A stretch of 64,000 bases of DNA from an uncultured archaeon (lineage in GTDB: Archaea > Thermoproteota > Bathyarchaeia > Bathyarchaeales > Bathycorpusculaceae): NCBI GenBank assembly GCA_963782915.1, contig CAWALK010000001.1, positions 160,001 through 224,000 on the forward strand, written 5' to 3'. The position numbers and the translations under genes were made by a program. This document shows positions 6,628-32,329 of this stretch, in pieces (positions within the stretch are counted from its first letter, which is position 1; the number at the start of each line of letters is the position of its first letter). Below the pieces are notes generated by a model. That model did not search any database. It had not been told where the DNA came from and worked only from the letters and a program-made list of their open reading frames with translations.

Positions 6628-6752
6628 AGGTTTGCCGGTCAAAGGGCACGGGTTCCACCTGATCCCATACCGAACTCAGAAGTTAAACCGTGTTCCGTTC
6701 CCAGCTGTAGTGTGGTCTTAGGCCACGTGAACCTGGGAAAGCTGGCAGCCTA
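6628..6752 (+). rRNA. rrf: 5S rRNA (stand-alone)
   Basis: CCACCTGATCCCATACCGAACTCAGAAGTTAAACC core; 5' GGTTTGCCGG pairs with 3' CTGGCAGCC; TATA-like CTTATAT about 25 nt upstream. Confidence 0.9.
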
Positions 6753-29621: not shown

Positions 29622-30032
29622 TCAAGCAACTTTTTGCTGGGCAGTAACCAGATAAGCTGGCAGACTCTCGATGCATTGAACCTCATGACCCACCAAAGCC
29701 CTTAACTCACGTCGAAACCTAACGTTTACTTTGATTTTTGCTCTCTCCAAATCACGGTGCAACCGTTCCGTGCCTTCCCTGCCTCTACGGTCAAAATCCA
29801 ACAGCAAAATAACTTCGCGGGCACCAAGATTTTCTATTTCTGTAGTGGCTTCCAAAAAAGATTTACCGCCTGTCTTCACAGTCACCACGGTGCCAGTTAT
29901 GCCGAGTTCTTCAAGGGCTTGGGCGTCTTTTTTGCCCTCAACAACTATGGGTTTGCCCTTCGCTGACTCCTCAGCCAATTTGGCTATAATTAGCTCAATC
30001 TTTTCTAGGCGGTCTTTTAGGTGCGTGGACAA
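29622..30032 (-). CDS. Small Toprim-domain protein (RNase M5/primase-like)
   Basis: IVVEGKKD, LLDFDRRG. Confidence 0.88.
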   Translation of the reverse strand: MSTHLKDRLEKIELIIAKLAEESAKGKPIVVEGKKDAQALEELGITGTVVTVKTGGKSFLEATTEIENLGAREVILLLDFDRRGREGTERLHRDLERAKIKVNVRFRRELRALVGHEVQCIESLPAYLVTAQQKVA

Positions 30033-30037
30033 GGAGT

Positions 30038-31127
30038 TTACCTTGTAATTTTAGCTTGACGCACCGTCTCCAAGCAATCAGCTGCTTCCTTGTTGTTAGC
30101 GAAGTATCGGCGGACTGGCTCCAAAATCTCCCCAAGCGAGGTGGCGACGCCGCTTTTAAGATCCATCGGATGCAGTTTACCCTCAACATAGCATGCTTCG
30201 AGTTCTTGGAAGCTATGGAATTCTACGTTGCCGCCGAATTTAGCTGGACGCTCGATTTTGAGGCAGTCTTTTTCGCGGAAGACAATGTATTTGCAGATGT
30301 CCATTATAGGATTGTACTTGACGGTTTTTTCGGGGCAGAACGATTTTGATAGTTTCTGCTTGATTTCTTCAGGTGTGTCGTAGATGAAGATGCATGTGTC
30401 AGGTTTGCTCTTTGACATTTTAGCTGATGCTATGGCTTCGCGTTCTTGACCTTCAGGAATAGGCCAAACAGCGGGTTTCGCTAAGTCCTTGAAGCAGGTG
30501 ATGGTGGATGCAGACGGGTTTCCAGTAACCGATTTTTTCGCCGATTTCTCTGGCAACCATGTTTGCTTTGCGCTGGTCCATGCCGAGTTGGCACATTTTA
30601 ACGTTCATTTCGAATATGTCCGCGACCTGCATGGGTGTGTAGAGGTAGTCGCTGACGTAGTGGGCTTCGCCTTCTTTTCTTCCAGCAATCTCAAGTGTGC
30701 GGGTGGTTCGGGCGATGGTGAGTTCTTTGGCTATGGCCATTGTTTTTGCCCAGTAAGCCAAATCATTGTATAACTCGTCTGAGTAGATGAATTCTACTTT
30801 GTCCGCTGGGACGCCTAGTGCGATCCAGCTGTGGCGGAAAAGGTCGGCTGCTTTGCGGATAAGTGCGAGGTCTCCGCCGAGTTTATTGTTCAAGTAAGCG
30901 TGCCATGTGGCTAGGAACACTTTGAAGCGTATGCCTGCTTCTGTGAAGTCTTTCATTTTGTAAGCGCAGATAACGCCAGTGCCTAAATGTACGAGTCCTG
31001 AGGGTTCAAAACCGTTGTAGGCGATTGGGTGCTCCTCAGTTTCTAGTAGTGCTCGTAGGTCTTCTTGGGTTACGACTTCTTCGGTTGGCAGTCTGCAGAT
31101 GAGCTCGATTTTTCTTTCGATGTCCAC
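30038..31127 (-). CDS. tyrS: Tyrosine--tRNA ligase (frameshift near 30483)
   Basis: YNGFEPSG.VHLG, Y.PMQVADI, GMDQRK, KMSKS, LHPMDLK. Confidence 0.95.
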
Positions 31128-31200
31128 TATTATTCCAGCTTTCTCTTGATTATTAGCCTTTAATGCTATTGTTGAACTTAAGAATTTAGAGTTAATTTTC

Positions 31201-31406
31201 GCGGGCGGATTGTCTCCCGACGTAACCTAACACTTTACCTCATAGCTGAGCGTCGCTTTAAGCTTGGTAAAGCTCTCTCGGCGCAGGAATTTATGCCCGT
31301 GCCCACCGTGTCCCTTGTTTGGGTGAACCCTTCGTCACTGCTAAGCAAGCGTAAGAGCTTGCAACTCTGTTGGGTCCGTCGTCAAGGGTGGAATTAGCCA
31401 GTGGGG
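31201..31406 (+). ncRNA. Putative structured ncRNA with blocks apparently antisense to 23S rRNA domain V
   Basis: GC-rich non-coding island; stems GCGGGC/GCCCGT, CGACG/CGTCG, CTCA/TGAG, GCTTTA/TAAAGC, CCCAC/GTGGG, CCCTTG/CAAGGG, GCAAGC/GCTTGC; TATA-like CTTAAG about 24 nt upstream. Confidence 0.6.
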
Positions 31407-31588
31407 AAATGTATATGCTAAACCAGTAAAGTTAAGCATTCCTATTCAAAGACTGCTTTTTTCTAAAATGCCCCGGCAAACCTTCACCCTTTGCAAGAGC
31501 TTCTCTAGATTCATACGGTTGTAGGCAACAATCATTTTCCTGTTTTTTATCCATAACGATTATACGTTAAAGGCAAAACAAAGATTGG

Positions 31589-32329
31589 ATGGCAACACTA
31601 AGCAAAGCCTCCTTCTGCTTCACAGTTGGCTTGGTTATCTTAATCGCTATACAAGTTATTGCACAAACCCCTATAATCGAATCTTCCCAGCCTACTCAAA
31701 ATTACATACAACCAATCGCCAACAACCAAATAGTTCTAGACGCAGCCAAACACGATGCGTTCAACTGCTACAACACCAACGGAACCGCGCCTGCCATAAA
31801 CGGCAATTCAGCACTCTTCTATGGCGCCAACACAACCAACACTTACTCCGATATAGTATCACAGACCACCGTAAAAGCCGATAAATCGCTCGTACTAGAA
31901 GCCCAAATAACCGCAAATGTAACCTGCTTTTCGGATAGTGGTGAGGACCAGTTTGCAGTTTTCGCCACAGACGACATAACCAACTACAAATCAGACGAAT
32001 TCGGGTTTGCTATGCCAGAAACAGGAAATATCTGGTACGCTTACATCCAATCGCCCAAAATTTTGGGTTTTTTTGTTTGGCAGCCTCTAAACATTCCCGA
32101 TCCCTTGGAGCCGCATAACTTCAAAGCTGTTTACTCAAGCCGTGGCTTATGGCACATGGTTAATTTCTTCGTTGACGGAAAACTACTTTGGAGTACTTCT
32201 TACCCAGATGTTTCTGGAAAAGAGTTTCATATGGTTCTTACGTCGCATAAGGTAAGCGCTGAAAACTTCGACTTAAGCCTGAACCAAATTGAAGTTAAAA
32301 ACGCCCTCTTAAGCGACGAAATAGAATAA
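31589..32329 (+). CDS. Secreted hypothetical protein (ConA/LamG-like beta sandwich)
   Basis: Signal peptide; HNFKAVY...VNFFVDGKL pattern. Confidence 0.6.
   Translation: MATLSKASFCFTVGLVILIAIQVIAQTPIIESSQPTQNYIQPIANNQIVLDAAKHDAFNCYNTNGTAPAINGNSALFYGANTTNTYSDIVSQTTVKADKSLVLEAQITANVTCFSDSGEDQFAVFATDDITNYKSDEFGFAMPETGNIWYAYIQSPKILGFFVWQPLNIPDPLEPHNFKAVYSSRGLWHMVNFFVDGKLLWSTSYPDVSGKEFHMVLTSHKVSAENFDLSLNQIEVKNALLSDEIE

Follow-up and report, generated by a model that had tools for sequence, protein, structure and literature searches.

A conserved double-hairpin small RNA beside tyrS in Bathyarchaeia, probably a box H/ACA guide of the sR-h45 type

Introduction

What does the gap upstream of the tyrosyl-tRNA synthetase gene tyrS encode in an uncultured member of the Bathyarchaeia? 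In the 64,000-nt stretch analyzed here (the window; positions 160,001 to 224,000 of contig CAWALK010000001.1, assembly GCA_963782915.1), a 460-nt intergenic gap bounded by tyrS (30038-31127, minus strand) and a plus-strand gene (31589-32329) holds a structured element that an earlier note, made from the sequence alone, had read as a plus-strand RNA antisense to the peptidyl-transferase center (PTC) of 23S rRNA. We find that the element is a conserved, real small RNA (sRNA) encoded on the minus strand, and we propose that it is probably a double-hairpin box H/ACA guide sRNA of the type represented by sR-h45 of Haloferax volcanii.

Results

A conserved small RNA gene in Bathyarchaeia

The description of the element as an island free of open reading frames (ORFs) held, in that no ORF of ≥40 amino acids (aa) overlaps 31128-31431. 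Its description as GC rich held relative to the flanking intergenic DNA (0.54-0.55 over 31200-31400 versus 0.30-0.40) but not relative to the neighboring coding DNA, whose GC content is similar to that of the element. A covariance model (R1) and comparison of homologues delimited the whole gene as ~215 nt at 31197-31411 on the minus strand, and R1 matched the element over its full length at 213.9 bits (C1:191197-191411, minus strand).

The homologues that the earlier note had suggested collecting were found, and the element is conserved beyond chance. A DNA search detected it in 28 of 41 related genomes, the window's own genome counted (19 of the 24 genomes of the genus and 8 of the 16 from other families of the order), whereas R1 identified it in 131 of 151 sampled Bathyarchaeia genomes, including 83 of the 95 high-quality ones. 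When a degenerate pattern derived from the conserved blocks was run against a species-level genome collection, at least 120 records matched, nearly all of them titled Bathyarchaeia or Bathyarchaeota. Three contigs carrying the sRNA have bacterial titles (L046, L096, and L112; Acidiferrales, Acidoferrum, and Clostridia), and L046 has tyrS as well; these are probably mis-binned Bathyarchaeia contigs. Beyond the class, R1 gave weaker matches in 37 of 131 genomes from other classes of the phylum, often as two adjacent hairpin hits, in which GACGGA, ACCCA, GAGAGAG, UGUUAG, and ACA are retained while the stems differ. Two copies of the sRNA were observed in some genomes, either a few kilobases apart (L089 and L118) or on separate contigs (G015 and G121).

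Searches of Rfam, both at the gathering threshold and at E values up to 10, returned nothing credible in 31000-31650, so that a match to an already described family, for which the earlier note had proposed to look, did not emerge. HgcE, HgcF, and HgcG are Rfam families of archaeal H/ACA RNAs, and no H/ACA family was among the matches. The assembly is archaeal and comprises 3.28 Mb in 25 contigs; since its 23S, 16S, RNase P, and signal recognition particle (SRP) RNAs are all located on other contigs, the element is none of these. RNase P and SRP RNA had been considered as identities and were rejected when both genes were found elsewhere in the genome. An intron-containing tRNA was likewise rejected, given that ARAGORN predicted none here, the ends are not complementary, and no T-arm was visible by eye. 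A box C/D sRNA was rejected because there was no Rfam match and because inspection of the alignment by eye found no terminal C and D boxes in the element. The sRNA therefore adds an unannotated family, absent from Rfam, to an abundant uncultured lineage of sediments and soils, and R1 can be used to annotate its gene across the Bathyarchaeia.

The RNA is encoded on the minus strand

The earlier note had assigned the RNA to the plus strand, an assignment that the pairing data reverse. In an alignment of 27 sequences, the helices contain 152 G-U cells when read in the minus-strand sense, compared with 47 A-C cells, and several pairs stay G-U across homologues in the minus-strand sense (GU in 87, 76, and 79 of 101 sequences, for instance). 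Since these pairs would be A-C mismatches on the plus strand, the RNA lies on the minus strand. Folding energies relative to shuffled sequences provide weak evidence in the same direction (z = -1.77 for the minus strand and -0.80 for the plus strand).

A promoter-like motif also favors the minus strand. The sequence GGAATGCTTAACTTT (31428-31442, minus strand), which resembles a transcription factor B recognition element (BRE) followed by a TATA box, precedes the 5' stem (CCCCAC) by ~21 nt, and a motif like AAC[A/G]TTTAAYT was seen by eye, uncounted, at an equal distance upstream in most of the 70 oriented loci listed. A second BRE/TATA-like motif, AAATTCTTAAGTT (31174-31186, minus strand), lies between the sRNA and tyrS and is taken as the tyrS promoter; a motif like CGAAACAACTTTTAAGTT follows the 3' end of the sRNA in nearly all of the 34 rows listed, 37 to 50 nt before the tyrS start. 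These placements account differently for two signals listed in the earlier note: the TATA-like CTTAAG is located in the putative minus-strand tyrS promoter, and the T-run near 31456 is upstream of the sRNA's own promoter. The U-run of the AAATTCTTAAGTT motif may also end the sRNA. Conservation of the CGAAACAACTTTTAAGTT motif across lineages whose tyrosyl-tRNA synthetases (TyrRS) are only 42 to 48% identical exceeds what would be expected for a plain promoter, and the motif may double as the sRNA terminator.

Sixteen RNA-library runs contain parts of the stretch, and a lack of contig cover elsewhere in the window does not indicate that transcripts are absent there. The metatranscriptome contigs placed on 31000-31600 (165 to 215 nt, from four runs in four studies) cover only 31202-31390, and one RNA-library contig ends at 31204, directly abutting adapter sequence. 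We regard these contigs as a hint of a discrete small RNA, not as proof.

Among the oriented loci L037 to L106, many Bathyarchaeia lineages, though not that of the window, have an additional short hairpin of the form GGCGAUGA-N-GAGCC that precedes the 5' stem by ~30 to 60 nt. This hairpin resembles a K-loop and would be a third L7Ae-type site.

Each domain contains an H/ACA-like hairpin

The secondary structure was drawn by hand on the alignment and then tested on 101 homologues aligned by the model; together with the covariance model, it replaced RNAalifold predictions on MAFFT alignments, whose consensus was poor because of gappy columns. Among the 101 homologues, 87.6% of cells are standard pairs, compared with 36 to 47% when the partners are slid by one to three columns. 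Moreover, 38 of the 51 pairs change on both sides, and none of 500 column shuffles reached any of the observed covariation measures. Fitting the alignment to the model biases it toward the structure, but the helices are secure in view of the slid controls and the large number of double changes. The minimum-free-energy fold of the minus strand yields the same lower and upper stem helices.

All features below are on the minus strand. The two closed domains recognized in the earlier note, CCCAC/GTGGG and GCGGGC/GCCCG, were borne out as helices 1 and 7, both of which show double changes. Helix 1 (outer helix P1) joins CCCACU (31400-31405) to GGUGGG (31302-31307), which closes domain 1 after the first ACA; all 6 of its pairs change on both sides, and 91% of its cells are paired. 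Helix 7 (outer helix P5) joins CGGGC (31295-31299) to GCCCG (31202-31206), with 96% of cells paired and 2 pairs changing on both sides, and is followed by the tail CGAAA (columns 305-309).

Within each domain lies a hairpin with a covarying lower stem of 6 to 7 bp, an invariant internal loop, an upper stem, a kink-turn (K-turn) signature, and an ACA or ANA box. The lower stem, large pocket loop, and upper stem of an H/ACA hairpin are thus present twice, and helices 2, 3, 8, and 9 covary. Stem-loop 1 (SL1; 31312-31388, helices 2 to 6) begins with a lower stem that pairs 31383-31388 with 31312-31317 (5 of 6 pairs change on both sides). Its pocket is formed by a 5' strand (31374-31382) with the invariant GACGGAC at 31374-31380 and a 3' strand (31318-31328) with the invariant ACCCA at 31320-31324, these blocks being invariant in 99 to 101 of the 101 sequences. 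The sequence signature of a K-turn (GA at 31366-31367; 3-nt bulge plus GA at 31335-31339) and an apical stem follow. ACA box 1 (31309-31311; columns 154-156) is directly 3' of the lower stem, and its A, C, and A are each found in 101 of 101 sequences.

Stem-loop 2 (SL2; 31215-31288, helices 8 to 10) has a lower stem pairing 31282-31288 with 31215-31222 and an upper stem pairing 31266-31273 with 31232-31239; among helices 8 to 10, double changes affect 6 of 7 and 6 of 8 pairs. The 5' pocket strand (31273-31281) carries GAGAGA at 31274-31279, invariant in 100 to 101 of the 101 sequences, and the 3' pocket strand (31223-31231) reads GUUAGGUUA. The K-turn signature consists of AA at 31264-31265 and a UAU bulge plus GA at 31240-31244. 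ACA box 2 (31211-31213; columns 283-285) is one base past the lower stem; its composition among the 101 homologues (A in 86; C in 69 and A in 30; A in 79) is ANA overall, and across homologues it follows the lower stem after one or two bases. An ACA/ANA box at the 3' side of the lower stem is therefore found in both hairpins, and each box, unusually, precedes a strand of an enclosing helix. The earlier note had seen no clear terminal ACA box in the element.

Both hairpins have the same K-turn signature, namely, GA on the 5' side of the apical stem and a 3-nt bulge followed by GA on the opposite side. Of the 101 sequences, 101 have the G of the SL2 signature, 90 its A, and 101 the partner A, and the second K-turn pair in the window's copy is A-A; in SL1, the GA positions are conserved in 90 and 101 of 101. 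By hand count, the stack from pocket to G-A pairs in SL2 has 10 layers (8 bp and 2 non-Watson-Crick pairs), whereas SL1 has 12, 10, or 8 layers depending on whether the invariant, noncovarying "pairs" of the lower part of its upper stem are counted as pocket. The published stack is 8 to 11 layers, about 10 (PMC4652768). The hairpins, pockets, K-turn signatures, and ANA motifs also match the description of box H/ACA RNAs in PMC4652768 and PMC7075261. Since ACA boxes and K-turn sequence motifs are present, the RNA fits the known box H/ACA class and is not the novel PTC-gripping or PTC-mimicking RNA that the earlier note had envisaged.

The longest invariant runs (GACGGAC, ACCCA, and GAGAGA) all fall within the two internal loops, as does GUU-G, while the stems covary. 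Invariant pockets on covarying stems are as expected for guides to invariant rRNA.

Invariant loop blocks match two sites in the genome's own 23S rRNA

The SL1 blocks are complementary to both sides of UGGGU[UUAGA]CCGUC at positions 2701-2715 of the genome's own large-subunit (LSU) rRNA, pairing with 2701-2705 and 2711-2715. The SL2 blocks are complementary to both sides of UAAC[UCUGAC]UCUCUC at LSU 2029-2044, pairing with 2029-2032 and 2039-2044. Position in the rRNA sequence places the SL1 site in the strand that links helix 90 to helix 93 and the SL2 site in the loop of helix 69; their correspondence to E. coli numbering is our assumption. Random block pairs found a site anywhere at rates of 619 and 576 of 20,000, and permuted block pairs did so at rates of 674 and 601 of 20,000 (~3%). 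The earlier note's general idea of a multisite guide to functional centers of 23S rRNA is consistent with these matches to the UUU between helices 90 and 93 and to the flanks of the helix-69 loop. Its strand assignment and the pairings it listed were not borne out. The 23S region was assembled in one of the five relatives chosen, where it is identical to that of the window's genome.

By hand count, 13 to 14 nt separate the last pairing base of SL1 from the ACA, near the n + 15 (±1) rule. For SL2, the spacing is ~16 to 18 nt in the register of the invariant GUUA and 14 to 15 nt in the alternative GGUUAC register.

These features suggest how the sRNA would act. The minus strand at 31197-31411 is proposed to encode a stand-alone double-hairpin H/ACA guide of ~215 nt that would be transcribed from its own BRE/TATA promoter. 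In each hairpin, the putative K-turn would be the binding site of L7Ae, and the lower stem together with the ACA box would be bound by Cbf5-Nop10-Gar1. Of the H/ACA protein set, the search covered Nop10, Cbf5 (TruB_N), and Gar1, and all three have candidate genes in the genome: Nop10 at 85.3 bits, a TruB_N/Cbf5-like ORF of 344 aa at 61.8 bits, and Gar1 at 38.4 bits. The SL1 internal loop is predicted to pair with the sequences flanking the UUU that separates helices 90 and 93 (ACCCA with LSU 2701-2705 and GACGG with LSU 2711-2715), which would present U2706 or U2707 for conversion to pseudouridine (Psi). The SL2 loop would pair with both flanks of the helix-69 loop (GUUA with LSU 2029-2032 and GAGAGA with LSU 2039-2044), presenting U2033 and/or U2035. 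Protein binding, pseudouridylation, and the exact target uridines are thus predictions from sequence, and if they are correct, the sRNA forecasts Psi positions in the 23S rRNA of Bathyarchaeia.

Comparison with known H/ACA RNAs

The RNA would be the Bathyarchaeia counterpart of H. volcanii sR-h45, with the same hairpin order and a similar size. sR-h45 is a double-hairpin H/ACA RNA of ~200 nt. Its SL1 directs the formation of Psi2605 (spacing of 15) at the last U of the UUU that separates helices 90 and 93; its SL2 directs the formation of Psi1940 and Psi1942 in helix 69, where UNUN stays unpaired and the spacings are 17 and 19 (PMC7075261). The two RNAs share a length of ~200 nt, two hairpins with K-turn G-A pairs (putative in the Bathyarchaeia sRNA), and ANA/ACA boxes. 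They also share, by description rather than by sequence comparison, the target order, predicted for the Bathyarchaeia sRNA (PTC site first and helix 69 second), along with a typical spacing in hairpin 1 and a long one in hairpin 2. In contrast, 2 to 4 target bases are unpaired in sR-h45 and 5 to 6 would be unpaired here, and where sR-h45 has a linker of 56 bases with a possible pseudoknot, a covarying helix encloses each hairpin plus ACA in the Bathyarchaeia sRNA. The hosts, H. volcanii and the Bathyarchaeia, also belong to different phyla. If the homology with sR-h45 holds, a single RNA carrying both PTC and helix-69 guides would be common to distant archaeal phyla, and this double guide would therefore be old. 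The sRNA adds no new principle. For the sR-h45 neighbors HVO_2651 and HVO_2652, we found no literature beyond PMC7075261, and a limited literature search found no published H/ACA RNAs of Bathyarchaeia.

Pyrococcus has canonical H/ACA sRNAs with one to three hairpins, and Pyrobaculum has H/ACA(-like) RNAs; the sRNA shares with them the lower stem, pocket, upper stem (with a putative K-turn), ANA, and stack of ~10 layers (PMC4652768). Its lower stems of 6 to 7 bp resemble those of Pyrobaculum sR201 and sR202 (5 to 6 bp) and are shorter than the 8 to 9 bp of Pyrococcus; its enclosing helices are extra (PMC4652768). The H/ACA RNAs of Sulfolobus come from the same phylum-level group as this sRNA, and one of them, sR115, guides Psi35 of tRNA-Tyr (PMC11077068; PMC2651775). 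Given this link to tyrosine decoding and the tyrS neighbor, tRNA-Tyr was tested as a target; the intron-containing pre-tRNA-Tyr of this genome was unsupported, with no bipartite match among the top hits. The genome has two near-identical 152-nt tRNA-Tyr (GUA) genes with an intervening sequence of ~75 nt (C2:5536-5687 and C17:27047-27198). Both were missed by ARAGORN, which reported 24 tRNAs compared with 50 Infernal matches (E values up to 0.01; 49 over the family cutoff).

Weighing the guide assignment against its alternatives

Several observations weigh against assigning the sRNA to H/ACA guides of the sR-h45 type. The K-turns are predicted from sequence signatures, helices enclosing a hairpin plus its ACA are not a described H/ACA feature in the literature covered, and the Rfam H/ACA families had no match to the element even at E values up to 10. 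The RNA-library contigs show neither strand nor level, and DNA carryover is possible. Pairing would leave 5 to 6 target bases unpaired, compared with the canonical 2, and extending the 5' pairing of SL1 requires an invariant A-A mismatch. General bipartite target scans, which covered the genome's own 16S, 23S, and 5S rRNAs and pre-tRNA-Tyr, did no better with the sRNA's guides than with shuffled ones. This was the case for a strict scan with a 2-nt gap (103 of 300 and 104 of 300 shuffles as good) and for a scan that allowed mismatches (53 of 100 and 72 of 100 as good). A flexible-gap scan ranked the PTC site first for SL1, with 19 of 60 shuffles scoring as high, and placed the helix-69 site joint second with three others for SL2 (score of 27; top score of 29, reached by 53 of 60 shuffles); neither result is significant. 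A genome-wide regular-expression scan for targets returned low-complexity hits only. The support from complementarity consequently comes from blocks chosen by conservation and from agreement with the known sR-h45 targets, which were brought in only after the matches had been seen, so that the agreement was not a blind prediction. The SL1 blocks also match a second site, at position 1386 of the 16S small-subunit (SSU) rRNA, where the gap has no U. Finally, the guide of relative G016 has an A where a G would pair with the rRNA C, the rRNA being unchanged; this position is probably an internal closing pair instead.

Some of these same observations could point to a K-turn ribonucleoprotein RNA of another function, such as a chaperone for ribosome assembly that would hold helix 69 and the PTC strand in a noncatalytic clamp, or an RNA that resembles H/ACA guides but has targets other than rRNA. 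Unpaired target loops of 5 to 6 nt, target scans without significance, covarying extra closing helices P1 and P5, and a third motif (the 5' K-loop hairpin) in many lineages would all suit such an RNA. Against it, all the defining H/ACA features are present twice, both matched sites are those of the characterized H/ACA RNA sR-h45, which is itself atypical at helix 69, and a simpler reading is available; we consider another function unlikely. A related notion is that the sRNA is a guide and also something more, either an assembly clamp that would keep the PTC strand of nascent 23S rRNA together with helix 69 or an RNA whose synthesis or termination is coupled to tyrS expression. What prompts this notion is the combination of enclosing helices, unpaired loops of 5 to 6 nt, an additional 5' K-loop in many lineages, and a location between pheT and tyrS that is class-wide; we give it only a small chance.

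The position next to tyrS raises the further question of whether the RNA is a cis-acting leader. It might sense tyrosine or tRNA-Tyr, work in the manner of a T-box, or act as an operator to which TyrRS or L7Ae binds to control tyrS expression. Among the 120 loci listed, tyrS is downstream on the same strand in 80, with no other orientation there, and these include lineages whose TyrRS are 42 to 48% identical; the gap to the start codon is often 50 to 75 nt, and of the 14 distinct loci of relatives with tyrS, 13 keep the arrangement. However, the conserved BRE/TATA-like motif that separates the RNA from tyrS, 37 to 50 nt before the start codon, suggests that tyrS has a promoter of its own; the RNA is probably not its leader, a placement that the earlier note had entertained. 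Furthermore, tyrS was not found in 21 of the 120 loci listed despite adequate flanks, lies 0.8 to 5.8 kb away in others, and is divergent in relative L012. The RNA-library contigs stop inside the element, and none continue into tyrS. Inspection by eye found neither a conserved Tyr codon nor a motif for binding tRNA ends, the pairings that RNAduplex gave with pre-tRNA-Tyr were all short and palindromic (no shuffle comparison), and the hallmarks of a T-box-like leader (continuity with the mRNA, lack of an intervening promoter, and constant position) were not observed. A leader is accordingly quite improbable, and we read the sRNA as a gene separate from tyrS, their linkage being unexplained. Least credible is the plus-strand RNA antisense to several segments of the 23S PTC, together with its variants, a decayed 23S fragment or a PTC mimic. 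The minus strand around 31206-31229 may superficially resemble a 23S motif named in the earlier note, which had paired this segment with helix 93. Yet the segment consists of a covarying stem and an ACA box, and its sequence is not conserved but varies between species. None of the four proposed plus-strand pairings rose above chance: the best 24-nt duplex with domain V had an energy of -28.1 kcal/mol versus -28.8 ± 2.4 kcal/mol for shuffled sequences, 35 of 60 mononucleotide shuffles being as good or better, and the plus strand showed no excess over shuffles with the whole 23S rRNA either. The plus-strand model therefore fails by the yardstick that the earlier note had itself set, duplex energies relative to shuffled sequence. 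A blastn search against the genome's own 23S rRNA found nothing significant, at best 14 nt with an E value of 0.7 outside the PTC, so that the element is not a decayed 23S fragment, and the G-U pairs and promoter motif indicate the minus strand.

The tyrS neighborhood and other observations

In addition to tyrS downstream, pheT often precedes the sRNA. A gene of 136 to 145 aa starting with (M/L)STHLK follows tyrS in 9 of 10 loci inspected (window copy at 29622-30032, minus strand), so that pheT, the sRNA, tyrS, and the (M/L)STHLK gene form a conserved block. The window's tyrS itself is in two frames, split near 30482; tblastn with the intact 362-aa TyrRS of a relative showed that the two frames overlap at residues 212 to 217. 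One extra base seems to be present where relatives have ...LLQGLAKPA..., and tyrS is also fragmented in a relative that is 97% identical (L047). An indel in the assembly, a pseudogene, or a genuine frameshift could account for the split.

Elsewhere in the genome, a weak second RNase P RNA-like match was observed at C25:81043-81180 (33.7 bits, under the cutoff), the real gene being on C15. The only Rfam matches elsewhere in the window were one 5S rRNA and one tRNA-His. The 5S rRNA gene (6631-6750, plus strand) is isolated, with the 16S rRNA gene on contig C20 and the 23S rRNA gene on contig C12.

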